From Bacteroidales bacterium (GTDB lineage Bacteria; Bacteroidota; Bacteroidia; Bacteroidales; UBA7960): 64,000 nt of DNA. A program made the position numbers and the translations under genes. Position 1 is the stretch's first letter, and each line of letters begins with the position of its first letter. The stretch is taken from the NCBI GenBank assembly GCA_019429365.1, contig JAHYJD010000008.1, forward strand, positions 948-64,947. The letters run 5' to 3'. Shown piece after piece: positions 1,899 to 63,858 of the stretch. Below the pieces are notes generated by a model. That model was not told the origin of the DNA, did no database searches, and was given only the letters and a program-made list of their open reading frames with translations.

Positions 1899-3281
1899 TT
1901 ACCCAAGCATTCTCAGGTAGTTAACTTCTTTTTCAGTGAGGAAACGCCACTTTCCGCGGGGCAGGTCCTTTTTTGTCAGGCCTGCAAAAATAACGCGATC
2001 GAGTTTTGTCACCTTGTAGCCAAACTGCTCGAAGAGGCGCCTTACCACGCGGTTCTGACCCGAGTGCAATTCAATACCCACTTCTTTCTTTGTTTCGGCC
2101 TTATCAATATATGATACGGCATCGGGCACCACAAGGTTATCGTCAATCTTCACTCCATTGGCAATTTGTTCCAAATCGGCTTTGGTAACGGCCTGGTCGA
2201 GATGCACGTGGTAAAGTTTTCTTACGCCATGACGCGGGTGGGTGAGTTTTTTGGCCAATTCGCCGTCGTTGGTAAGTAGCAGCAGTCCGGTAGTGTTGCG
2301 GTCGAGCCTTCCCACGGGGTAAACGCGCTCGCGGCCAGCATTTCTGATCAATTCCAGCACGGTTTTACGGTCCTGTGGGTCGTCGGAAGTGGTTATATAA
2401 TCCTTTGGCTTGTTGAGCAGGATATATACTTTCTTTTCGTTCACCAGTCGCTGGGTGCCATACATCACTACGTCGCCGGGCATTACTTTTACGCCCATCT
2501 CGGTCACGATTTTGCCGTTTACGGTAATGGCGCCGTTTTTAATAAGCATGTCGGCTTCGCGCCTGGAGCATACGCCGGCATTGGCAATGTATTTATTCAG
2601 CCTGCTGCTGTCGTCGAGTATTTTGCGGGGTTCTCTGCTACTTCGGTCGGGTTTGCCTTTGGCATAAGGTCGTCCGGAAGCCGGACGATCTTTCGAGTAG
2701 CTGCGTTCGCTACGTTCTGGTCGGTCACTTGAATAGGGCCTGTCGGAGGAGTAGCTGCGTTCGCCCCTGCCGCTGCGATCGCCAGAAGAAGGCCTTCCGG
2801 GAGATTGCCTGCGATCACCAGTCTGCGGACGGTCCTTTGAAAAAGGTTTTTCCCTGGAGAATTTACGGTCACCGGCTTCTGGTCTGTCTTTCGAATAGGG
2901 TTTTTCCCTGGAAAATTTGCGGTCGCCAGTACTTGGACGATCTTTGGAATAGGGTCTTTCTTTGGAGAATTTACGATCGCCCGATTCGGGTCGATCTTTC
3001 GAAAAGGGTCTTTCCCTGGAAAATTTGCGGTCGCCAGTATTTGGACGGTCTTTCGAAAAGGGTTTGTCTTTGGAGAATTTGCGGTCGCCCGATTCGGGTC
3101 GATCTTTTGCATGTGGCCGATCTTTCGAAAAAGGCCGATCTTTTTTGTAGGGGCGGCCTTCGGTGCGGGGCCTGTCGGAACGGGCCTCACGGCCGGTGCT
3201 TTTTCCGGTGGTTTTTGAGCCAGGGCGGCCCGGACGTGCCTTACGCCGGTCTCCACCGGGCCTGGCAGATGTGTTTCTCAT
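1899..3281 (-). CDS. rluB: RluB/RsuA-type 23S rRNA pseudouridine synthase with a long basic, repeat-rich N-terminal extension
   Basis: S4 domain (LNKYIANAGVCSRREADMLIKNGAITVNG) and catalytic motif (GRLDRNTTGLLLLTNDG). About 215 N-terminal residues are R/K/D/P/S low complexity. Confidence 0.85.
   Translation of the reverse strand: MRNTSARPGGDRRKARPGRPGSKTTGKSTGREARSDRPRTEGRPYKKDRPFSKDRPHAKDRPESGDRKFSKDKPFSKDRPNTGDRKFSRERPFSKDRPESGDRKFSKERPYSKDRPSTGDRKFSREKPYSKDRPEAGDRKFSREKPFSKDRPQTGDRRQSPGRPSSGDRSGRGERSYSSDRPYSSDRPERSERSYSKDRPASGRPYAKGKPDRSSREPRKILDDSSRLNKYIANAGVCSRREADMLIKNGAITVNGKIVTEMGVKVMPGDVVMYGTQRLVNEKKVYILLNKPKDYITTSDDPQDRKTVLELIRNAGRERVYPVGRLDRNTTGLLLLTNDGELAKKLTHPRHGVRKLYHVHLDQAVTKADLEQIANGVKIDDNLVVPDAVSYIDKAETKKEVGIELHSGQNRVVRRLFEQFGYKVTKLDRVIFAGLTKKDLPRGKWRFLTEKEVNYLRMLG
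2820..3089 (-). repeat. Five head-to-tail 54-nt (18-aa) coding repeats, GDRKFS[KR][DE][KR]P[FY]SKDRPxx, inside the rluB N-terminal extension
   Basis: Residues 65-154 parse into 5 units of 18 aa. I verified the first unit's codons at 3078-3089 (GDRK). The antisense frame also shows an 18-aa period (ENLRSPDSGRSFEKGLSL). Confidence 0.85.
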
Positions 3282-3323: not shown

Positions 3324-4004
3324 TTAAAAAAGTGTCAGGTTTGGATCCTGCCATGGTTTAATTAATTCGGGGGTGTTCAATGCCGCACTGTTCACTTTGG
3401 GCGACACTTTGTAGCTTTCCATTTCCCCGGAAGGGAAAGGAACGAGCAGATCATTGAGTTTTTCTGTTTCGGGTTCATTCAGCCATGCCATGCTTTCCTC
3501 TTTGCCGAGGATAACAGGCATGCGGTCGTGAATGCCACCCAGTAATTCGTTTGCCCTTGTGGTGACAATGGTAAAGGCAAAAGCAGTGGAGCCATCGGGC
3601 TGCACCAGCTGGTCAAAAAGTCCTGCAAAGGCAAAAAGGCCGTCATTTTTGAGCACAAAACGCCAGGGTTGTTTTGTTTTTCCAAGCTTTTCCCATTCAA
3701 AAAAACCATCAGCAGGTATCAGGCAGCGCTTACGTGGAAGCAGCACTGAAAACATTTTTTTCTGGTGCAGCGATTCTGACCGGGCATTGATCACTATGGG
3801 CGGCGTTCGGGAAGTGCTTTCCCATGGTGGTTGCAGCCCCCAGCGAAAATGCTGCAGCCTGTCGGGCTGGTTCATTGCGATAACCGGCAGCAACTGGGTT
3901 GGGGCAGCATTGTAAAGCTCGCCTTCAAAGGCCGCAGGAATGGTAACACTGAAATGATCGCCAATTTCCCTGGCTTTTTTACTTATCGAATATCGGCCAC
4001 ACAT
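3324..4004 (-). CDS. yedK: SOS-response-associated peptidase (SRAP/YedK, abasic-site DNA-protein crosslink protein)
   Basis: Starts MCGRYS with the family's Cys2 nucleophile. Length of 226 aa is typical of DUF159/SRAP. Confidence 0.8.
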   Translation of the reverse strand: MCGRYSISKKAREIGDHFSVTIPAAFEGELYNAAPTQLLPVIAMNQPDRLQHFRWGLQPPWESTSRTPPIVINARSESLHQKKMFSVLLPRKRCLIPADGFFEWEKLGKTKQPWRFVLKNDGLFAFAGLFDQLVQPDGSTAFAFTIVTTRANELLGGIHDRMPVILGKEESMAWLNEPETEKLNDLLVPFPSGEMESYKVSPKVNSAALNTPELIKPWQDPNLTLF

Positions 4005-4020
4005 AAAAGCTGGTTTCTAC

Positions 4021-4044
4021 AAAAAAAGGCGCTGGAAGCGCCTT
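4021..4044 (-). terminator. Rho-independent terminator for the 4068-4349 gene
   Basis: GGCGC-TGGAA-GCGCC stem-loop at 4028-4042. On the minus strand it is followed by a T7 run (A-run 4021-4027 on plus). Confidence 0.6.
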
Positions 4045-4067
4045 CGTAACTTTTCAGAATGCCTGGC

Positions 4068-4349
4068 TTAGCCGGCTATCTTGTTCAATTGGTCAAAAGC
4101 GCCATTAACTTTCTCGAGCAATTCATCAAACAGGGCCCGGTAGTAGTTTTTCAGGCTCTGACCGTTTTCATTCACCTCAGGATTGTTGATGCGGGTGATA
4201 AGACTCTCGCGGTACTCGATCATCTCGTTTATGATCTGATCCAGCTCTTCTTGCTTGTCCTGCTGGGTGTACTGATGAATCATGCAGGTACCGATCACTT
4301 CGTCGATCAGGTAGTTAAGGTCTTTCTTAAGGTTTTTGATGCTTGCCAT
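4068..4349 (-). CDS. Hypothetical small helical protein (93 aa)
   Basis: ATG-initiated ORF with its own terminator. I recognised no motif. Confidence 0.5.
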   Translation of the reverse strand: MASIKNLKKDLNYLIDEVIGTCMIHQYTQQDKQEELDQIINEMIEYRESLITRINNPEVNENGQSLKNYYRALFDELLEKVNGAFDQLNKIAG

Positions 4350-53216: not shown

Positions 53217-56200
53217 ATGGCTTTCAGAAAAGAAACCAACGTTAAAAGCAATTTTTCCCAGATCACCATCAGCCTGGCCTCGCCCGAGTCTGTATTGGAA
53301 CGTTCGCACGGGGAAGTGCTTAAGCCGGAAACTATCAACTACCGTACCTATAAGCCCGAACGCGACGGACTGTTTTGCGAAAGGATCTTTGGGCCGGTAA
53401 AGGATTGGGAATGCCATTGCGGAAAATACAAGCGTATCCGTTACAAAGGAATCGTTTGCGACCGCTGCGGTGTTGAAGTGACTGAGAAGAAGGTTCGTCG
53501 CGAAAGGATGGGCCACATTAAACTGGTAGTGCCCGTGGCACACATCTGGTTCTTCCGTTCGCTTCCCAATAAAATTGGCTACCTGCTTGGATTGCCCTCA
53601 AAAAAACTCGACCAGATCATTTATTACGAAAGGTATGTGGTCGTTAATCCCGGTATCAAGGCCGATGAGCTTAACTTCCTCGATTTCCTTACAGAAGAAG
53701 AGTATTTCAATATCCTGGAGTCGCTTCCGCGCGAAAACCAGATCCTTGAAGACGACGATCCCAATAAATTCGTGGCCAGGATGGGCGCCGAAGCGTTGAA
53801 AGATATTTTACACCGCCTCGACCTCGACCAATTGTCGTACGACCTTCGCCACAAGGCCAATACCGAAACCTCGCAGCAGCGTAAGGCTGATGCCCTCAAG
53901 AGGCTGCAGGTGGTTGAAGCCTTTCGCGAATCGCAAAAAACCATTGAGAACAAGCCCGAATGGATGATCGTGGATGTGGTTCCCGTTATTCCCCCGGAGC
54001 TTCGCCCCCTCGTGCCACTCGATGGCGGCCGGTTTGCCACCAGCGACCTGAACGACCTCTACCGTCGCGTAATCATTCGCAACAACCGCCTGAAGCGTCT
54101 CATCGAAATCAAGGCACCTGATGTAATTTTGCGTAATGAGAAGCGTATGCTTCAGGAAGCTGTGGATTCGCTGTTTGACAACTCGCGCAAGACCAACGCA
54201 GTAAAGACCGAGTCGAATCGTCCGCTTAAGTCGCTCAGCGACAGCCTCAAGGGTAAGCAGGGACGTTTCCGTCAGAACCTTTTGGGTAAAAGGGTCGACT
54301 ATTCGGCCCGTTCGGTTATTGTGGTTGGTCCTGAGCTGAAGCTTCACGAATGCGGTCTTCCCAAAGAAATGGCCTCCGAGCTTTTCAAGCCTTTCATTAT
54401 TCGTAAGATGCTCGAAAGGGGTATCGTCAAGACGGTGAAGTCGGCCAAAAAGATCGTTGACCGTAAGGATCCCGTTGTATGGGATATCCTGGAAAATGTA
54501 TTGAAGGGGCACCCGGTGCTTCTTAACCGTGCGCCTACGCTTCACCGCTTGGGTATTCAGGCTTTTCAGCCCAAACTGATCGAGGGGAAAGCTATTCAGC
54601 TGCACCCGCTGGTTTGTACCGCTTTCAACGCCGACTTCGATGGTGACCAGATGGCCGTTCACGTGCCCCTGGGCAATGCTGCCATTCTTGAAGCACAGCT
54701 TCTGATGCTGGCTTCGCACAATATCCTTAACCCTGCCAACGGGGCACCCATTGCCGTCCCTTCGCAGGACATGGTTCTTGGCCTTTATTACATGACCAAG
54801 GCCCGCAAGAGTACTCCCGAACATCCTGTTAAAGGAGAAGGACTGACATTTTATGGTCCGGAGGAAGTAATTATAGCGCACAACGAAGGTGCTGCCGATC
54901 TGCACGCCATCATTAAGGTTCGCGTTCCCGTAAGGGAAAACGGACAACTGGTGGAACACCTCATCGAAACCACCGTAGGCCGCGTGCTGTTTAACCAGGT
55001 GATTCCCAAAGAGTATGGCTTTATCAACCAGCTGCTTACCAAAAAAGCACTGCGCGATATCATTGGCGCCATCATGAAAGTGACCGGTATTTCCCAAACC
55101 TCGCAGTTTCTCGATGATATCAAAGACCTTGGGTTTACCATGGCATTCAAAGGTGGTTTGTCATTCAACCTGGGCGATATCCTTGTTCCGGAAGAAAAAC
55201 AGATCCTTATTGATCAGGCCAACGAACAGGTTGATGAAGTGCGTGCCAACTACAGCATGGGCTTTATCACCAACAACGAACGTTATAACCAGATCATCGA
55301 TATCTGGACACACACCAACGCCAAGCTTACCAAGGTGCTGATCGAAAAGACCACTGCCGACAACCAGGGTTTCAACCCGGTGTATATGATGCTCGACTCC
55401 GGTGCAAGGGGCTCAAAAGAGCAGATTCGTCAGCTCTCGGGTATGAGGGGTCTTATGGCCAAGCCACAGAAATCGGGCGCCAAAGGTGGTGAAATTATTG
55501 AAAACCCCATTCTTTCCAACTTTAAGGAAGGTCTGTCGGTTCTCGAGTACTTTATCTCCACCCACGGTGCACGTAAAGGTCTGGCCGATACTGCCCTTAA
55601 AACGGCCGATGCCGGTTATCTTACCCGACGTCTGGTCGACGTTTCTCAGGACGTGATTGTAACCGAGCCCGATTGCGGAACCCTTCGCGGTTTAACCGCC
55701 ACTGCACTCAAAAACAACGAGGAAACAGTTGAGCCTTTATTCGACCGTATCCTGGGCCGTACAACCCTGCACGATATCTATCACCCAACCACTGCTGAAC
55801 TTATTGTTAAAGCAGGGGAGGAATTAACCGAGGAGATATCCAGGATTATTGAAGATTCACCCATTGAAGCGGTAGAAATTCGTTCGGTACTTACCTGTGA
55901 GTCGAAACATGGTGTTTGTGCTAAATGCTACGGCCGCAACCTGGCCACCGGACGTATGGTTCAGAAAGGCGAAGCTATTGGCGTTATCGCAGCCCAGTCT
56001 ATCGGTGAACCCGGTACTCAGCTTACACTTCGTACCTTCCACGTGGGTGGTGTTGCAGCTGGCCTTGCCACTGCCTCTAAAATAAACGCCAAGTATGGCG
56101 GTCTCCTTGAGATCGACGAACTCCGCAGCGTACCGTTTACCAATGCTGAAGGGAAATCCTACCACGTGGTTATTGGTCGTTCGGCAGAGATGCGCATTGT

Positions 56201-57512
56201 GGACAAGAGCACCCGCATGGTGCTTACCAGCCAGAATATACCCTACGGTGCCAGCCTGTATTTCGAGGCTGGACAGGAAGTGGAAAGCGGCGACCTGATT
56301 TGCGAGTGGGATCCCTACAACGCCGTGATTATTTCCGATATGAGTGGTAAAGTGGTGTTCAACCAAATGCAGGAAGGCGTTACTTACCGTACCGATTCTG
56401 ACGAACAGACGGGTTACTACGAAAAAGTGATCGTCGAAAGCAAGGACAGAACAAGGAACCCTTCCATTAGTATTGTTGATAAGGATGGCGAAATTCTTCG
56501 CACTTACGACATGCCCGTGGGAGCTCACATTGTTGTGTCTGAAAATCAGGAGATTGTAGCTGGTAAAACGGTAGCTAAGATTCCCAGGGCCGTTGGTAAA
56601 TCTGGTGACATCACTGGTGGTCTGCCAAGGATCACCGAACTGTTCGAAGCCCGTAACCCAAGCGATCCGGCTGTGGTTTCTGAAATCGATGGTGTAGTTT
56701 CGTTTGGCAAGAAGATCAAGCGCGGTAACCGCGAGGTGGTTATTACTTCCAAAACCGGCGATGAGAAGCGTTACCTTATTCCGCTTTCGAAGCAGATCCT
56801 TGCCCAGGAAAATGACTTTGTGAAAGCCGGCACGCCCATGTCTGATGGCCCGATCACCCCGGCCGATATCCTTGCTATTAAAGGCCCCACCGCCGTGCAG
56901 GAGTATATCGTGAATGAGGTGCAGGAAGTATATCGCATGCAGGGTGTGAAGATCAACGACAAGCACTTCGAAGTAATTGTTCGCCAGATGATGCGCAAGG
57001 TAACCATTGACGATCCGGGCGATACCCGCTTCCTCGAAAACGAGATCGTGAACAAGATCGAGTTTATGGAAGAGAACGACAACAATTTCGGCAAGAAGGT
57101 GGTTGAAGATCCGGGTGACTCTGTTCTCAGACCTGGTCAGATTATCACTGCCCGTAAGCTGCGCGACGAAAACTCGCTGCTCAAGCGTAAGGACAAGGCC
57201 ATTGTTGTTGCCCGCGATGCCAGAGGTGCTACGGCACGTCAGCAGCTGCAGGGTATTACCAAAGCTTCACTCCAGACCAAGAGCTTTATCTCGGCTGCTT
57301 CCTTCCAGGAAACCACCAAGGTACTTACCGATGCGGCTGTTAATGCCAAAGTCGATAACCTGGCAGGCCTGAAGGAAAACGTGATCGTTGGTCACCTGAT
57401 CCCAGCCGGTACCGGTCTCAGGGAGTACGAAAACATCATTGTTGGATCAATGGAAGAGTACAACCTGTTGATGGCCTCCAAGCGAAAAGTTGAAGAAGTA
57501 GAAGAAGATTAA
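53217..57512 (+). CDS. rpoC: DNA-directed RNA polymerase subunit beta'
   Basis: Zn-finger CHCGKYK..CDRCG, catalytic NADFDGDQM, 1431 aa. Confidence 0.98.
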
Positions 57513-57859: not shown

Positions 57860-57896
57860 ACTAAACCCGGAAGCAAATCGCTTCCGGGTTTTTTAT
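57860..57896. terminator. Bidirectional rho-independent terminator ending the rpoBC operon and the convergent lipoprotein gene
   Basis: CCCGGAAGC (57866-74) pairs with GCTTCCGGG (57880-88). An A-run lies before it and T6 after it. Confidence 0.8.
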
Positions 57897-58337
57897 TTAA
57901 AAGAATCGGAATGCCCGCAGCAAACCCTCTTCATTGTCTCCATACCATACCAGCAGGAACTGTCCCCGGACTTTTGCATCGTTCTTGACCTTCTCCCAGG
58001 TCTCTTCCATCTCCTTTTCTTCCCCATCATCTTTAAAGGTTACAAACCTTCTAACATAATCTTCCACCTGCTCGAGTGACTCCCTGGGGTCTTTGCCTTC
58101 TTTTACCTTAAATACAAAAGCTTTCAGGTTGGCGTCGTGATAAATAAGCAGGTCGTTCACGCCAATCAGGTTCAGCGCCATCTTTTCCAGGGTGCCGTTG
58201 GGCTGGCGGTATTCGCCTGAATATCCGGCCCGCTGCATCTTTTCCTTCAGTACATTCAAATTGCCCGGCTCGCGCTGGCAGGCAAGAAATCCTGCCAGCA
58301 TCAGGCTGAAAACGATCAGGGTTCTAAAAATCTTCAT
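57897..58337 (-). CDS. Hypothetical small lipoprotein (146 aa)
   Basis: The ATG at 58337 gives MKIFRTLIVFSLMLAGFLAC (lipobox). The track's longer N-terminus (MERDRSIVEKDRSIVEK...) is only translation of the 21-nt repeat array. Confidence 0.6.
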   Translation of the reverse strand: MKIFRTLIVFSLMLAGFLACQREPGNLNVLKEKMQRAGYSGEYRQPNGTLEKMALNLIGVNDLLIYHDANLKAFVFKVKEGKDPRESLEQVEDYVRRFVTFKDDGEEKEMEETWEKVKNDAKVRGQFLLVWYGDNEEGLLRAFRFF

Positions 58338-58384
58338 AAGAATTGTTTTTGCGAAGATAATGCAAAAGATTATTCTCGCAGTAG

Positions 58385-58502
58385 GGACAGGTCGCGACCT
58401 GTCCTTTTCCACAATTGACCTGTCCTTTTCCACAATTGACCTGTCCTTTTCCACAATCGACCTGTCCTTTTCCACAATTGACCTGTCCCTTTCCACACAA
58501 TC
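58385..58502. repeat. 20-bp perfect palindrome (GGACAGGTCGCGACCTGTCC, 58385-58404) leading into five head-to-tail 21-bp repeats (GACCTGTCCTTTTCCACAATT, 58396-58502)
   Basis: Copies at 58396-416, 58417-437, 58438-458 (1 substitution), 58459-479 and 58480-502 (degenerate, 2-nt insertion). The palindrome is an inverted copy of the GACCTGTCC core. Confidence 0.9.
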
Positions 58503-58515
58503 GCCCTGACCCTGA

Positions 58516-61452
58516 TCACCCCCTCGGGTCGGGCTTCATGGGCAGGCGGGCCATTTTTTCTACGGTTAATGATGGGAAACCGAACTCTTCAGTTATGGTG
58601 CCCAGCAGCAGGTATATGCCGCTTCCGCGGAAAGGCCAGGCTTTGGAAGCGCCGGGAAAGTGGACGGTGTCGAAGAAGTTGCCCTGCACATCCAGAAAGC
58701 AGCCGAAGTGCATCATTTCGCGCTTTACGGTGCGCACGTATTTGATGGTGACCAGCCAGCCCACCATGCGCACCTTGCGCCCCACCTGCTGCAGCATATC
58801 TGTGGCCATCATCTCGCCGCGGAAGCCGCTCTTTGCCAGGTCGAAGGGACTCATCGACACGGTGAAACCCAGCAGTTCCATTTCATCATAGGCATCCTGC
58901 ACGGGGTCGGTTTCCGGTTCAGGAAAGTGAAAGGCCTTTTCCTGCGCGGCAAACAGCATGGGGCCGGTGGTGGGTTTCTTACCAGTGAGCAGATGCGCCT
59001 TCCACATAAGCTGTGCCTTGGCAATGCCCGTAAACCGGAAAGCATTGACACGAATGAGCAGTATGAGCTGCTCCAGTCCGGCCCCGCTGCGGCGGGCAAA
59101 GTCTTCCAGGCCCAGGTAGGGCCCGCTGCCTTCGCGCTCGGCTGTGATGTGCTGCGCCAGCTTGTATTCCAGGTTCTGTATGTGCACAAAGCCAATGTAA
59201 ATATCACTTCCGTAAATGGTGGTGGTGTAGTTGCTGTGGTTTACGCAGGGCAGCTCGATATTGGCGCCATAGCGGCGGGCTTCGTTGAAATACACCGGGC
59301 TCTGGTAGAAGCCGCCAAAGTTGTTGATCACGGCGGTCATAAACTCGCGCGGATAATAGGCTTTCAGGTAAAGGCTCTGGTAGCTTTCCACGGCAAATGA
59401 AGCCGAGTGGGCTTTCGAAAAAGAGTATCCGGCAAAAGACTCAATCTGCCGCCACACTTCGCTGATGAGGCTTTCGGGATAGCCTTTGGCGCGGCAGTTT
59501 TCGAAAAAGCGGTCCACAATACGCTGCATTTCTTTTTTAGAGCGGTACTTGCCGCTCATGGCACGCCGCAGCACGTCGGCATCGGCCAGGTCGAGCCCGG
59601 CAAAGTGGTGGCATACCTTGATCACGTCTTCCTGATACACCATTACGCCGTAGGTTTCCTTCAGCTGCTGCTCCATAACCGGATGCAGATACTCAAAACC
59701 CTTGGGGTTGTGGAAGCGCTGAATGTATTCGCGCATCATGCCCGAGCGGGCCACCCCGGGGCGTATGATGGAGCTGGCGGCCACCAGGCTGATGTAGTTG
59801 TCGCAGCGCAGCTTCTTGAGCAGCCCGCGCATGGCGGGGCTCTCTACATAGAAGCAGCCGGTGGTCTCGCCCGAGCGAAGCAGCGCCTTCACCTTCTCAT
59901 CTTTTTTGAACATCTCCACCTGGTGCACATCCACGCTGATGCCGTAGTTTTGCCTTACAATCTGGGCGCACTCATTGATATGGCCGATGCCTCGCTGGCT
60001 CAGGATATCGATCTTCTCGAAGGCCAGCTCTTCGGCGGTGTACATGTCCCACTGCACGGTGGGCAGGCCCTTGGGCGGCATGTCGAAGGCTGAGTAGCAG
60101 TTGATAGGCTGCTCAGAGATGAGCACGCCCCCGGCATGGATGCTGCGCATATTGGGAAAGTCGGCCAGCTGTTCGGCCATTCGGAAGATGCGGGCGCCCA
60201 CGGCATCGGGCGTGCGGCGGGCTTCGTGGTTCGACACCAGCATGTCGATCTCGGCTTTGGGCAGGCCCAGCACCTTGCCCAGCTCACGTATCATGCTGCG
60301 GTCGCGAAAGGTGCTGATGGTGCCCAGCAGGGCGGTGTGCTCATGGCCGTAGCGCTTGAAGATGTAGTCGAGCACCTGGTCGCGCTCCTTCCACGAGTAG
60401 TCAATGTCGAAGTCGGGCGGGGTGGTGCGCTTGGGGTTGATAAAGCGCTCGAAGTAAAGGTCGAGCTCAATGGGGTCCACGTCGGTGATGCGCAGGCAGT
60501 AGGCCACGATGCTGTTGGCGCCGCTGCCGCGCCCCACATGGTAGAAGCCGCGCGACATGGAGTAGCGTATGATGTCCCAGGTAATGAGGAAGTAGGACGA
60601 GAAGCCCAGCTTGTCGATGATCTCCAGTTCGTGCTGCACTTGCCGCAGGGCTTCCTTGTTGCGCTTGCCGTAGCGGTATTCCAGCCCGTCCATAGCCAGC
60701 TTGGTAAGCAGGGCACGGTCATCGGCCGGATGGCCGGTAAAAGTCTTTTTGTTTTTGGGTGTGCGGAAGTCGAAGTCCATGTGGCACTGCTCCAGCAGCA
60801 TTTCTGCGTTGGTGATGAGCTGCGGGAAGCTTTGGTAGTGGCTGCGCAGGGCGGCAGGCGAAGGGAGGACTTCGCCGGGGTGGGCGGTATGTTTGCCGGT
60901 GAGGCGGCTCAGCACTATGTTGTGGTCGATGGCGCGCAGGTGGCGGTGCAGTTCAAATTCCCTTTCAGAAAGGAAGGTGATGGGATGCAGGGCCACGAGC
61001 TTCGCAGGGTGGTGGCGCAGGGGAGCGGTGGAGAGACGCGTGAGCTCCCAAGGGCGTATGCCGATATATTCGTTGTTGCCGGGGAACGACCCTGCGCCAC
61101 CCTCCCCGAAAGGGTAAATGACAAAAGTATGATCGCATACCGGAAAGCGTTCGGGCAGTGCTGTCCTGTCAATATTATGCTGGCTCAGGAATGCGTTGAT
61201 GCGGCGAAAGCCTTCGGGGTCGCGTGCCAGCACAATGTACAGCAGGCGGTCGCCCTTGCGAAACTCCATGCCTGCCACGGGTGCAATGCCCTGCTCACGG
61301 CACAGCTTTACGAAATCGGGCATGGCCGTAGCGTTGTTGATGTCGGTCAGCGCCATGCGTTTGATGCCCATCTCAGCGGCCCGTGTCACCAGGTCTTCGG
61401 GGCTTACGGTGCCGTAGCGCAGGCTGTAGTATGTGTGGCAGTTGATGAACAT
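58516..61452 (-). CDS. dnaE2: Error-prone DNA polymerase III alpha-like subunit (DnaE2-type), 978 aa
   Basis: N-terminal PHP domain (CHTYYSLRYGT), a pol III alpha core (FDIDYS catalytic-Asp region; GLLKMDFLG region replaced by KIDILSQRG) and a C-terminal OB-like region. Short length and linkage to a Y-family polymerase and an S24 repressor fit DnaE2. Confidence 0.85.
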   Translation of the reverse strand: MFINCHTYYSLRYGTVSPEDLVTRAAEMGIKRMALTDINNATAMPDFVKLCREQGIAPVAGMEFRKGDRLLYIVLARDPEGFRRINAFLSQHNIDRTALPERFPVCDHTFVIYPFGEGGAGSFPGNNEYIGIRPWELTRLSTAPLRHHPAKLVALHPITFLSEREFELHRHLRAIDHNIVLSRLTGKHTAHPGEVLPSPAALRSHYQSFPQLITNAEMLLEQCHMDFDFRTPKNKKTFTGHPADDRALLTKLAMDGLEYRYGKRNKEALRQVQHELEIIDKLGFSSYFLITWDIIRYSMSRGFYHVGRGSGANSIVAYCLRITDVDPIELDLYFERFINPKRTTPPDFDIDYSWKERDQVLDYIFKRYGHEHTALLGTISTFRDRSMIRELGKVLGLPKAEIDMLVSNHEARRTPDAVGARIFRMAEQLADFPNMRSIHAGGVLISEQPINCYSAFDMPPKGLPTVQWDMYTAEELAFEKIDILSQRGIGHINECAQIVRQNYGISVDVHQVEMFKKDEKVKALLRSGETTGCFYVESPAMRGLLKKLRCDNYISLVAASSIIRPGVARSGMMREYIQRFHNPKGFEYLHPVMEQQLKETYGVMVYQEDVIKVCHHFAGLDLADADVLRRAMSGKYRSKKEMQRIVDRFFENCRAKGYPESLISEVWRQIESFAGYSFSKAHSASFAVESYQSLYLKAYYPREFMTAVINNFGGFYQSPVYFNEARRYGANIELPCVNHSNYTTTIYGSDIYIGFVHIQNLEYKLAQHITAEREGSGPYLGLEDFARRSGAGLEQLILLIRVNAFRFTGIAKAQLMWKAHLLTGKKPTTGPMLFAAQEKAFHFPEPETDPVQDAYDEMELLGFTVSMSPFDLAKSGFRGEMMATDMLQQVGRKVRMVGWLVTIKYVRTVKREMMHFGCFLDVQGNFFDTVHFPGASKAWPFRGSGIYLLLGTITEEFGFPSLTVEKMARLPMKPDPRG

Positions 61453-61457
61453 TTTTT

Positions 61458-61491
61458 CGGATTACGCGGATTGTTACGGATTGCACGGATT
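61458..61491. repeat. Four phased CGGATT hexamers (AAUCCG on the dnaE2 mRNA strand) at 9-10-nt spacing, 6-40 nt upstream of the dnaE2 ATG
   Basis: CGGATT at 61458-63, 61467-72, 61477-82 and 61486-91. Confidence 0.85.
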
Positions 61492-61535
61492 TGGGAAGGG
61501 CACCCCTCGACTTCGCTCGGGGCAGGCAGGGAAAA

Positions 61536-61620
61536 GGAGGTAGCGGCAGGAGGTAGCGGCAGGAGGTAGCGGCAGGAGGTAGCGGCAGGAGGTAGCGGCA
61601 GGAGGTAGCAGCAGGAGGCA
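61536..61620. repeat. 13-nt tandem repeat GGAGGTAGCGGCA, 6 copies plus a partial 7th
   Basis: Copies start at 61536, 61549, 61562, 61575, 61588 and 61601 (variant), with a partial copy at 61614. The period is not a multiple of 3. Confidence 0.9.
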
Positions 61621-61636
61621 GAATACAGTAGCAATA

Positions 61637-61713
61637 AAACCTGAAACCTGAAACCTGAAACCTTAAACCTTAAACCTTGAACCCCAAACTCCAAACTCCA
61701 AACCTGAAACCTA
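61637..61713. repeat. Heptanucleotide tandem array (AAACCTG / AAACCTT / AAACTCC variants), about 11 units
   Basis: Units run from 61637 every 7 nt. The last unit overlaps the stop codon (61711-13) of the Y-family polymerase gene. Confidence 0.9.
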
Positions 61714-62868
61714 TCCCGGTGTCATGGCCACTCCGCGGTGCAGGGCGCTTTCGCCGTGCTTGCGGCGCATGCGGTCGATGGCCTGGTAGAGGCTGATGAG
61801 CTCGGGTGTTTCTTCGAACATATTGAGTTGCTGCACGCCATGCACCAGGCGGCTGAACTGTATGCCCACCAGTCGTATGAGCATGCGGCGGGTGTAAAGT
61901 CGCCGGAACAGCTCCTTGCATACGGGGATGAGCACGTGGTCAAAGGAGGTGTAAGGCACGGTTTGCTGCAGGGTGTGGGTGTCGAAGTTGGCGTAGCGTA
62001 TCTTCACGGTGACGCAGCCGGTGAGCTGCTGCTTCTTGCGCAGGCGGTAGGCCACCTTCTCGCACATGCGCACCAGCAGGTCGTTGATAAAGGCAATGTC
62101 GATGGTGTCGGTTTCGAAGGTGCTCTCGGTGCCGATGGATTTTCGCTCACTCCAGCTCTGTACCGGGCTGCTGTCGATGCCGTTGGCCCGCCGCCATATC
62201 TCGCGGCCGTTCTTGCCCATCATGTTTTCCATCACCTCGGGCGGTATGCGGCTCAGGGTGCCTATGGTGGCAATGCCCATGGTGCGCAGGGTGTAATAGG
62301 TCTTGGAGCCGATCATGGGAATCTTGCGGATAGACAGGGGATCGAGAAAGGGCCGCAGCATGGGCTGCTGCACCTGTATCTGCCCGTTGGGCTTGGCTTC
62401 GCCCGTGGCGATCTTCGACACGGTCTTGTTCATCGAAAGCCCCATGGAGATGGGCAGCCCCGTTTCTTTTATGATGTATTGCCGCAGCTCTGAAGCCCAT
62501 TTGTAGCAGCCAAAGAAGCGATCCATACCCGTGATGTCGAGGTAGTGCTCGTCGATGGAGGCCTTCTCGAATACCGGCGCCCGCTCGGCAATGATCTGCG
62601 TGACCATGTTGGAGTACTTGCTGTAGTCCTGCAGGTCGCCGCGAATGAACACGGCATCGGCACAGAGGTTGCGGGCCAGCTTCATGGGCATGGCCGAATG
62701 CACCCCATACTGCCGCGCCTCGTAGCTGCAGCCTGCCACCACGCCCCGGTCGCCCATACCGCCAATGATCACGGGCTTGCCAACGAGGCTGCTGTTGTGC
62801 AGGCGCTCCACCGACACAAAAAAAGTGTCCTGATCGAGGTGTGCTATGGTGCGGGCAGAAGAGTCCAT
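61711..62868 (-). CDS. dinB: Y-family DNA polymerase (DinB/Pol IV-like) with catalytic acidic residues retained
   Basis: HLDQDTFFVSVE aligns with E. coli DinB HVDMDCFFAAVE (D8/D10), and SIDEHYLD with SLDEAYLD (D103/E104). 385 aa. Confidence 0.85.
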   Translation of the reverse strand: MDSSARTIAHLDQDTFFVSVERLHNSSLVGKPVIIGGMGDRGVVAGCSYEARQYGVHSAMPMKLARNLCADAVFIRGDLQDYSKYSNMVTQIIAERAPVFEKASIDEHYLDITGMDRFFGCYKWASELRQYIIKETGLPISMGLSMNKTVSKIATGEAKPNGQIQVQQPMLRPFLDPLSIRKIPMIGSKTYYTLRTMGIATIGTLSRIPPEVMENMMGKNGREIWRRANGIDSSPVQSWSERKSIGTESTFETDTIDIAFINDLLVRMCEKVAYRLRKKQQLTGCVTVKIRYANFDTHTLQQTVPYTSFDHVLIPVCKELFRRLYTRRMLIRLVGIQFSRLVHGVQQLNMFEETPELISLYQAIDRMRRKHGESALHRGVAMTPG

Positions 62869-62915
62869 AAATATTTTTTGCTCAGGCGCTTGCCGTTTCA
62901 GAAAATGTTTTAACT

Positions 62916-62964
62916 TTGATTAGAATATGATCAAGATTCTGGTTATAATTTAATCAAAAATTGA
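62916..62964. promoter_or_regulatory. Candidate operators in the divergent dinB / lexA-like control region
   Basis: Palindromes TTGAT-N9-ATCAA (62916-62934) and TCAA-N3-TTGA (62954-62964) lie in the AT-rich 144-bp intergenic region. No binding motif was verified. Confidence 0.3.
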
Positions 62965-63012
62965 ATTGTGGTTCTTGTTAAGGGGTGATTTTTTCTGCCA
63001 AAACACAGTATT

Positions 63013-63858
63013 ATGAGTTTCTTTGCATCCAACATCAAGCTTTTGCGCAAGCGGCGCGGCCGCACCCAGGACGATGTGGCCTTTTTGCTTAACATGAAGC
63101 GCCCCACCCTGAGCGGTTACGAGAATGAGGTGGCCCAGCCCGGGCTGGAAGCCCTTGTGACTTTTTCGAAGTATTACAACGTGTCCATCGACACCCTGAT
63201 AAAGGTTGATCTTGCCAGTTTGGCTGAAAGCCAGCTCAGGCAGCTGGAGCGGGGCTACGATGTCTTCGTTTCGGGCAGCAAGCTGCGGGTGCTGGCTACC
63301 ACCGTCGACAGCGACAACGAAGAGAACATCGAGTTGGTGTCGGAAAAGGCCAAGGCCGGCTACCGCACCGGCTTTGCCGACCCGGAGTTCATCAAGGTGC
63401 TGCCTACCTTCCAGATGCCTTTCCTGTCGAAGCAGAAGAAGTACCGCAGCTTCCAGGTCTCGGGCGACAGCATGCTGCCCATACCCGAGGGCTCATGGGT
63501 TACCTGCGAGTTTGTACAGAACTGGAACCTGATACAGAACCGCCATGCCTACGTGATTCATACCCTCGACGATGGGGTAGTGTTTAAGGTGGCGGAAAAC
63601 CTGATAAGGAGCGAAGGCAAGCTGCGGCTCTATTCGCTCAATCCGATATACGAGCCTTACGAAGTGCATGTGAACGACATCCGCGAGGTGTGGAAGTTCG
63701 TCCACTTCATCAGCAGCCAGATACCCGAAGCCAACTCGCCCATGGAGCAGCTCTCAAATCAGTTCATACAGCTAAAGAAAGAGGTGGAGTCCATCAAAAC
63801 CAAGCTAAAGCCAAAGCAGCCCAAAGGAAAAACGGGCAACCTTTTCGGTGATGAATAA
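63013..63858 (+). CDS. CI/XRE-type HTH plus S24 peptidase repressor (non-canonical LexA-like)
   Basis: N-terminal HTH (RRGRTQDDVAFLLNMKRPTLSGYENE). Candidate Ala-Gly self-cleavage site (KAKAGY). S24 Ser (VSGDSMLP) and Lys (VVFKV). Coiled-coil-like C-terminal tail. Confidence 0.8.
   Translation: MSFFASNIKLLRKRRGRTQDDVAFLLNMKRPTLSGYENEVAQPGLEALVTFSKYYNVSIDTLIKVDLASLAESQLRQLERGYDVFVSGSKLRVLATTVDSDNEENIELVSEKAKAGYRTGFADPEFIKVLPTFQMPFLSKQKKYRSFQVSGDSMLPIPEGSWVTCEFVQNWNLIQNRHAYVIHTLDDGVVFKVAENLIRSEGKLRLYSLNPIYEPYEVHVNDIREVWKFVHFISSQIPEANSPMEQLSNQFIQLKKEVESIKTKLKPKQPKGKTGNLFGDE

Follow-up and report, generated by a model that had tools for sequence, protein, structure and literature searches.

Which system is encoded where a LexA-like repressor gene lies back to back with two DNA polymerase genes, and how might it be controlled? 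This question is raised by a stretch of 64,000 nucleotides (hereafter the window) of contig JAHYJD010000008.1, from the Bacteroidales bacterium assembly GCA_019429365.1, in which a repressor gene is divergent from polY, the gene for a Y-family polymerase, and from dnaE2 behind it, the gene for a homolog of the DNA polymerase III (Pol III) alpha subunit (Table 1). We consider that the region is, with high probability, a chromosomal copy of the Bacteroidetes PolY-DnaE2B module guarded by its own non-canonical LexA paralog. This confidence applies to the identity of the cassette and to its regulatory logic; we are less certain about whether a PolY-DnaE2B-RecA complex forms and how the polymerases share the work. 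The kind of cassette has already been described for Bacteroidetes, and what is new here is a distinct, strongly conserved operator and its architecture.

The repressor and the two polymerases

The three open reading frames (ORFs) of the cassette are full-length and strongly conserved and have thousands of homologs; they are genuine genes, not chance ORFs. The repressor carries an N-terminal helix-turn-helix (HTH) domain of the CI/XRE type (Pfam HTH_3, 1.3e-12), whose matches in the PDB are Xre/CI-type HTH proteins, followed by a Peptidase_S24 domain (1.2e-7; 31.9 bits, cutoff 23.3), and Pfam gave no LexA_DNA_bind match in it. Its motifs KAKAGY, GDSM and VFKV begin at residues 112, 151 and 190, respectively. 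Across 17 homologs, A115, G116, G151-D152-S153-M154 and F191-K192 are invariant, which marks A115-G116 as the candidate cleavage bond, S153 as the predicted nucleophile and K192 as the predicted general base.

To which LexA proteins is this repressor related? Two groups of CI-like S24 non-canonical LexA proteins, with the operators GGA-N5-TCC in one and CTAA-N5-TTAG in the other, were described by Sanchez-Osuna et al. (Nucleic Acids Research (NAR) 2021; PMC8565304), whose supplementary alignment we used to compare the C-terminal domain. Over residues 101-262, the gap-free alignment to P. actiniarum WP_025606010.1, a protein validated by electrophoretic mobility shift assay, shows 44% identity (E = 1e-50) and continues through the family-specific C-terminal helix. 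An extra C-terminal helix at about residues 243-264 is also present in the AlphaFold2 (AF2) model, at low confidence (predicted local distance difference test (pLDDT) 57). The identity to members of the GGA group, including the validated S. agarivorans protein, is 31-36%. Therefore, because the identity is higher to the CTAA group, the protein is assigned by sequence comparison to the non-canonical CI-like S24 LexA analogues, nearer the CTAA group.

The product of polY is a Y-family polymerase (IMS, 6.5e-43; IMS_C, 9.3e-27). In a HMMER alignment to Escherichia coli DinB (PDB 4ir1), D12 and D14 correspond to D8 and D10, F16-F17 to F12-F13, and D106-E107 to D103-E104; these residues, with F17 at the steric-gate position, lie within the peptides LDQDTFFVSVE (residues 11-21) and SIDEHYLD (residues 104-111) and do not vary among 16 family members with overall identities of 70-98%. 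The active site (D12, D14, D106, E107) is thus intact, and PolY is predicted to be catalytically competent. BLASTP identities are 61.8% over 377 aa to Rufibacter AKQ45465 and 56.4% over 376 aa to Cellulophaga ADV50500, both labelled Bacteroid-PolY2 in the supplement of NAR 2026, and 22.9% over 175 aa to Mycobacterium tuberculosis ImuB; these values place PolY in the Bacteroid-PolY2 group. The protein exceeds the NCBIfam Pol IV cutoff (PRK02406, 285.9 bits against 256) and ends at residue 385, with no ImuB-C domain. Near this end lies a beta-clamp-binding-like motif, QQLNMF (residues 346-351), in which Q346, Q347, L348 and F351 are invariant in the 16 homologs and at the equivalent position of which published members show QxxLF. 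The following residues, 352-380, match the RecA-NT-like strings tabulated for Bacteroid_PolY2 by Timinskas & Venclovas 2019 (for example, DDTKLINLYQRMDKIRNRYGQNAVQRAS of D. orientale) and include seven residues, L360, Y361, Q362, A363, D365, R368 and G372, that are invariant in the same homologs; this is a predicted RecA-interaction motif.

The 978-aa protein has the domains of a Pol III alpha subunit (PHP, 1.5e-15; DNA_pol3_alpha, 1.5e-65; DNA_pol3_finger, 1.7e-41; HHH_6, 2.7e-16). D347, D349 and D482 correspond to D401, D403 and D555 of E. coli and are invariant in the homologs, and the PHP metal site is degenerate, with N4 in place of the first His. A conserved PxLF occupies residues 831-834, and PolY and this protein each have a clamp-binding-like motif of their own. 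The NCBIfam profiles fail to separate the replicative from the error-prone type, since the scores for PRK05673 (DnaE1; 536 bits, cutoff 1002) and PRK05672 (error-prone; 512.6 bits, cutoff 939) both fall below cutoff. Because the match to PRK05673 stops at position 1022 of 1146, the C-terminal tau-binding domain is missing. We determined the class by comparison with the truncated, classified DnaE2A and DnaE2B sequences of the NAR 2026 supplement: the N-terminal 400 aa are 53% identical to Rufibacter AKQ45466 and 47% identical to Cellulophaga ADV50501, and have only local matches, of 26-35%, to M. tuberculosis DnaE2A. This comparison places the alpha subunit in the accessory DnaE2 lineage, as a DnaE2B, and not with DnaE1.

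These results agree with the original prediction in most respects. It had described a 281-aa CI-like repressor with a KAKAGY site and a Ser/Lys dyad, a divergent two-gene unit, a Y-family polymerase that keeps its catalytic acidic residues, and a PHP/Pol III alpha protein of the DnaE2 type; the ORF coordinates are exact, the residues lie where they were placed, and all five domains that it named for searching (IMS, PHP, DNA_pol3_alpha, Peptidase_S24 and HTH_3) score above the Pfam gathering scores. Its statement that Bacteroidetes use CI-like S24 LexA analogues, after Sanchez-Osuna et al. 2021, was also correct. The absence of imuA and imuB that it reported was borne out when the 64-kb window was searched by tblastn with M. 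tuberculosis ImuA and ImuB, with a Bacteroidetes RecA and with PolY and DnaE2: no other Y-family or Pol III alpha gene turned up, nor any RecA/ImuA-like one. Might an imuA/imuB pair lie just outside, given that the window stops 142 bp past the end of the repressor gene? In Bacteroidales bacterium UBA4814 (locus L001), whose cassette proteins are 94-98% identical to those of the window and whose flank is collinear, the 5 kb past the repressor gene encode a purine nucleoside phosphorylase, an amidohydrolase, XdhC and a deaminase, with no imuA, imuB, recA or second dnaE.

How general is this arrangement? We retrieved 80 related loci and compared their gene order and spacers. The repressor gene is divergent in 66 of the 70 loci with sufficient upstream sequence, and dnaE2 follows on the same strand in 51 of the 62 with sufficient downstream sequence. 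The gap between polY and dnaE2 ranges from 3 to 2750 bp and includes unrelated insertions. A conserved third gene in the long gaps was considered and rejected, because the inserts (PIN-like and others) are unrelated, so that no ImuB-C or ImuA analogue is hidden there. The fragmentary DnaE2 matches of L011, L031 and L052 were not called pseudogenes, as they may reflect assembly indels in long-read metagenome-assembled genomes.

The original prediction had also implied that an active Y-family polymerase next to DnaE2 without ImuA was novel; in this it was mistaken. Bacteroidetes loci with PolY2 followed by DnaE2, with an active polymerase and without ImuA, ImuB or ImuB-C, were reported in NAR 2019 (Timinskas & Venclovas), and the same laboratory formalised them in NAR 2026 as a DnaE2B-PolY-RecA module, whose carriers have one DnaE1 and one DnaE2B. 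The window shares with this module the order polY to dnaE2 on one strand, the intact PolY site, the RecA-NT-like motif, the short DnaE2 with a reduced PHP domain and, within its 64 kb, the lack of ImuA, ImuB and ImuB-C. It differs in nothing essential: the copy stems from a Bacteroidales-type lineage that is uncultured, and the repressor linked to it has another operator. The relation to the ImuA-ImuB-DnaE2 mutasome (lexA-imuA-imuB-dnaE2; Erill et al. 2006; Warner et al. 2010, as summarised in PMC6511836) is more distant. Both systems have a repressor-linked Y-family protein with clamp and RecA-type motifs and a second Pol III alpha, whereas the window lacks ImuA, its PolY has an intact site and no ImuB-C, and its alpha subunit is of the DnaE2B and not the DnaE2A type.

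The GATTA-N5-TAATC operator

Regulation was not analysed in the two module papers (NAR 2019, NAR 2026). What, then, might the repressor bind? The 144-bp spacer that separates the repressor gene from polY (62869-63012) contains neither CTAA-N5-TTAG, even with one mismatch, nor GGA-N5-TCC, and across the window the counts of both are at or below chance. A generic inverted-repeat search of the spacer gave trivial 6-mers only. The putative operator surfaced solely through the comparison of orthologous lexA-polY spacers, 61 of 62 of which contain the palindrome GATTA-N5-TAATC, typically as two copies whose starts are 23 bp apart. Perfect copies are present in 48 of the 62 spacers (shuffle mean, 0.055), and the 23-bp pair in 45, against none in 200 dinucleotide shuffles. 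Counted by locus, the 23-bp pairing occurs in 51. The two copies in the window, each with one mismatch, have the same 23-bp offset and are the sole sites with at most one mismatch in the 64 kb. We did not find this operator in the searchable literature.

The distribution of the sites also links them to the cassette. First, in 881 kb of loci together with the window, nearly all operator pairs lie directly upstream of polY. Second, where insertions split dnaE2 from polY (L075, L052, L069 and L036), the separated dnaE2 has its own site. Third, where the repressor gene is parted from polY (L034, by a HicAB pair, and L051), each side retains a site. Apart from one pair in L007, the operator in the available sequence is thus confined to the repressor gene, polY and dnaE2. 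These comparisons argue that the repressor, polY and dnaE2 form one regulatory unit through the GATTA-N5-TAATC operator in about 60 species-level genomes. The additional pair of L007 has 24-bp spacing and is located outside the cassette, at 3342-3380, about 150 bp upstream of a DUF2461 gene (3490-4155), which may be a further regulon member in that genome.

The polY-proximal copy is fused to a TAnnTTTG match directed toward the lexA-like gene, and its flank, ...TAATCAAAnnTA, is conserved in a 51-locus consensus. We take TAnnTTTG to be the Bacteroidetes -7 promoter element, and on that basis the match is the probable promoter of the lexA-like gene; a scan for sigma-70-type promoters is uninformative for Bacteroidetes.

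Phage lambda CI binds tandem palindromic operators, OR1-OR2-OR3, spaced about 23-24 bp centre to centre and overlapping divergent promoters, a layout that permits pairwise cooperative binding and autoregulation. The window resembles it in combining a CI-like HTH and S24 repressor with tandem palindromic operators, and differs in having two operators rather than three and no phage context. Cooperativity of the CI kind at the operator pair is possible, as the fixed 23-bp spacing suggests.

Among the non-canonical LexA proteins of Bacteroidetes, the control of the module has a closer parallel. In the GGA-N5-TCC group the regulon consists mostly of dinB and, in the same operon, a Pol III alpha gene, control of the module by a non-canonical LexA in Flavobacteriaceae was shown in silico in 2021, and divergence of the operator motif among paralogs is documented (PMC8565304). 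The same study reported a validated case, the E. anophelis paralog, which binds TTAC-N5-GTAA and is divergent from an error-prone polymerase gene, both genes being induced by mitomycin C. We regard this paralog as a direct precedent, because it combines a diverged dyad with a 5-bp spacer, a divergent error-prone polymerase and induction by mitomycin C. A related dyad, ACTA-N5-TAGT, is listed for Draconibacterium sp. M1 in a supplementary table of "perfect dyads" for regulators without CTAA-N5-TTAG (PMC8565304). The window shares with this family the CI-like HTH and the S24 domain with Ala-Gly, Ser and Lys, the extra C-terminal helix and, as in E. anophelis, the divergent error-prone polymerase gene and a palindrome with a fixed 5-bp spacer in the repressor's own promoter. 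It differs in its arms, which are GATTA/TAATC and not CTAA/TTAG, GGA/TCC or TTAC/GTAA, and in having two copies at a fixed 23 bp, with sites seen only at the cassette.

A model of the cassette and its alternatives

How might the cassette work? In an undamaged cell, repressor dimers would sit on the two operators of the divergent region and keep both the repressor gene and polY-dnaE2 off. Upon DNA damage, RecA filaments on single-stranded DNA would stimulate self-cleavage of the repressor at A115-G116 through S153 and K192, the cleaved repressor would leave the operators, and all three genes would be induced. PolY, by means of its clamp-binding-like and RecA-NT-like motifs, would draw RecA and DnaE2B into a translesion complex, where synthesis by both polymerases would be possible. 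All of these steps, from repression and RecA-dependent cleavage through induction by damage to complex assembly and what each polymerase does, are inferred here from the families.

Several observations weigh against this model. No alignment of the S24 domain to the LexA, CI or UmuD structures could be obtained by sequence or profile search of the PDB, which returned HTH proteins only, and the AF2 model, built from a 17-sequence alignment, was too poor for a fold search; the Ser/Lys assignment is therefore drawn from Pfam and the published alignment. Because neither published operator motif is present, the case for repression comes from comparative footprinting, and the promoter of polY could not be placed. 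The operator is seen only at the cassette's own promoters in the available sequence, and a genome-wide SOS role of the repressor is consequently not supported. Finally, polY lacks an adjacent dnaE2 in 11 of the 62 loci, which implies that joint action of the polymerases is not required in every case.

This last point bears on the alternative that we take most seriously, although we think it the less probable one: that the polymerases are merely co-regulated and act independently, PolY as a Pol IV-like enzyme and DnaE2B in separate mutagenic or gap-filling synthesis, with no obligate complex. Loci with polY and the repressor alone, the variable gaps with their unrelated insertions and the separate clamp-binding-like motifs are all what independent action would predict, as is the fact that PolY on its own passes the Pol IV cutoff. 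Same-strand adjacency in the large majority of loci and the retention of the same operator by a split dnaE2 speak for a functional link between the two, and the evidence published for other members of the module, namely PolY-DnaE2B-RecA co-occurrence, phylogenetic congruence and AF-multimer models (interface predicted TM-score of about 0.75), favours a complex.

Could PolY instead serve mainly to tether DnaE2B to the clamp and RecA, as an adaptor of the ImuB kind, leaving mutagenic synthesis to DnaE2B and making its own catalysis dispensable for the pathway? Whether both polymerases are needed catalytically was already asked in 2019. PolY does share the interaction modules of ImuB (the clamp motif and the RecA-NT-like motif), sister DnaE2B systems are known to employ inactivated PolYs, and the canonical mutasome operates in this manner. 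Yet the catalytic and steric-gate residues are invariant in a family whose members vary in overall identity down to 70%, which argues for selection on PolY catalysis; moreover, some loci encode PolY with no dnaE2, and PolY has no ImuB-C domain. We therefore judge a purely adaptor role to be unlikely.

Far less plausible is that a mobile element or prophage carries the module as cargo and that the S24 protein is the CI-type repressor of that element instead of a cellular SOS regulator. Such an origin could account for the high GC content at third codon positions (GC3) of the cassette genes (0.76-0.82, against 0.45-0.63 for all 46 other window ORFs of at least 110 aa), for the match of the repressor to PHROG 4, "transcriptional repressor" (1.2e-18), for a genomic position that differs among most loci and for the presence of a 61% identical dinB-dnaE pair beside an SRAP (SOS-response-associated peptidase) gene on an Adhaeribacter swui plasmid. 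Upstream in the window, however, lie rpoC (53217-57512) and a DUF3467 gene, and the flank of L001 contains the phosphorylase and amidohydrolase genes; none of these neighbours is an integrase, phage or transfer gene. Five related genomes, with RpoC identities as low as 85%, keep the cassette at this position. Among 2.9 million viral contigs only three matched the repressor, each within the HTH domain, and its C-terminal domain groups with validated cellular SOS regulators.

That the 978-aa protein is a replicative DnaE1, and the locus no mutagenesis cassette, is scarcely credible: the slightly higher PRK05673 score and the name "DNA polymerase III subunit alpha" given to homologs in some sources are outweighed by scores far under both cutoffs, the lack of the tau-binding region, the degenerate PHP site, the absence of the gene from 11 of the 62 orthologous loci, its identity of 47-53% to the DnaE2B of genomes with a separate DnaE1 and its position under the operator of an S24 repressor. 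We thus retain the model of a PolY-DnaE2B module controlled by its own non-canonical LexA paralog.

Surroundings of the cassette and its significance

The coordinates of the cassette and of the features around it are collected in Table 1.

Table 1. Features of the cassette region and of split cassettes in related loci (window positions unless a locus is named)
Feature	Position	Strand	Remarks
DnaE2B-type Pol III alpha homolog gene (dnaE2)	58516-61452	-	978 aa; ORF and Pfam
polY, Y-family polymerase gene	61711-62868	-	385 aa; ORF and Pfam
LexA-like repressor gene	63013-63858	+	281 aa; ORF and Pfam
Operator copy nearer lexA-like gene, GGTTATAATTTAATC (+ strand)	62941-62955	.	Putative; 1 mismatch to GATTA-N5-TAATC
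Operator copy nearer polY, GATTAGAATATGATC (+ strand)	62918-62932	.	Putative; 1 mismatch to GATTA-N5-TAATC
TAACTTTG, TAnnTTTG match (Bacteroidetes-type -7 element)	62911-62918	+	Putative; toward lexA-like gene, fused to polY-proximal operator
Candidate cleavage bond A115-G116	63355-63360	+	Conserved residues, 17 homologs
Predicted nucleophile S153	63469-63471	+	GDSM invariant, 17 homologs
Predicted general base K192	63586-63588	+	FK invariant, 17 homologs
QQLNMF, beta-clamp-binding-like motif, PolY residues 346-351	61816-61833	-	Predicted function
RecA-NT-like motif EETPELISLYQAIDRMRRKHGESALHRGV, PolY residues 352-380	61729-61815	-	Matches tabulated group strings
polY-dnaE2 spacer	61453-61710	-	258 bp; tandem repeats fill nearly all
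13-mer tandem repeat, 6.5 copies	61535-61618		In polY-dnaE2 spacer
7-mer tandem repeats	61637-61712		In polY-dnaE2 spacer
21-bp tandem repeat, 4.9 copies	58396-58497	.	Directly after dnaE2 stop codon
Strong bidirectional terminator-like hairpin	57863-57891	.	First such - strand site downstream of dnaE2, after 199-aa ORF
Split-cassette positions	L034 5151-5929; L075 8701-8752; L052 8602; L069 1516; L036 9859		Insertions; retained or regained sites

A search of the coding strand of the polY-dnaE2 spacer for a terminator-like hairpin found none. Because it is on the same strand and lies between dnaE2 and the terminator-like hairpin, the 199-aa ORF at 57897-58496 (-) might share the cassette transcript. 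This ORF has no Pfam, NCBIfam or PHROG match and is kept only in L001 (88%); an internal sequence resembles a lipoprotein signal peptide (MKIFRTLIVFSLMLAGFLAC), and the 21-mer array gives it a spurious repetitive N-terminal extension. Elsewhere in the window, the ORF at 1899-3281 (-) contains a 54/108-bp tandem repeat (2827-3144; about five copies, 77-85% matches), which suggests that its product is a repeat-containing protein.

Tandem repeats are dense in the cassettes of other genomes as well. In 45 loci, their density is 16.6 bases/kb over the cassette span and 6.4 in the flanks, at least one array occurs in 29 of the 45, and repeats also crowd the cassette spacers of L003 and L004, among others. 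The GC content of polY exceeds that of its flanks in 47 of 47 related loci, by a mean of 8 points, with a gradient that falls from polY through dnaE2 to the lexA-like gene. Transfer from a GC-rich donor, biased gene conversion and a gene-specific bias are candidate causes of the high GC3; a very recent transfer of the cassette is unlikely, because the insertion site is conserved in the five related genomes. On the Adhaeribacter swui plasmid (NZ_CP055155.1, 27964-44885; 117 kb; L081), dnaE2B overlaps dinB by 4 bp, the SRAP gene precedes the pair, and a replication initiator gene is about 4.5 kb away; the module can therefore be plasmid-borne in Cytophagales.

What does the cassette add to the biology of these systems? 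Its value is incremental, in that an environmental Bacteroidales-type lineage joins the non-canonical LexA family and the PolY-DnaE2B-RecA module. The operator offers a concrete handle for first experiments on this type of mutasome, and cultured carriers of the same operator exist in Plebeiibacterium sediminum (L027) and Draconibacterium. Both non-canonical LexA ortholog groups have been reported as absent from the order Bacteroidales (PMC8565304). We speculate, tentatively, that the repressor represents a further specificity class of non-canonical LexA in Bacteroidales-type bacteria, which recognises GATTA-N5-TAATC, binds two operators in a CI-like manner and serves as a local switch for a polymerase pair and not as a global SOS regulator, and that the pair itself is a true two-polymerase translesion machine. 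If this were so, insertion opposite the lesion would fall to PolY and extension to DnaE2B, with RecA and the clamp holding the two, an arrangement unlike that of the dead adaptor ImuB, and a regulator of this kind would be found in an order reported to be without them.

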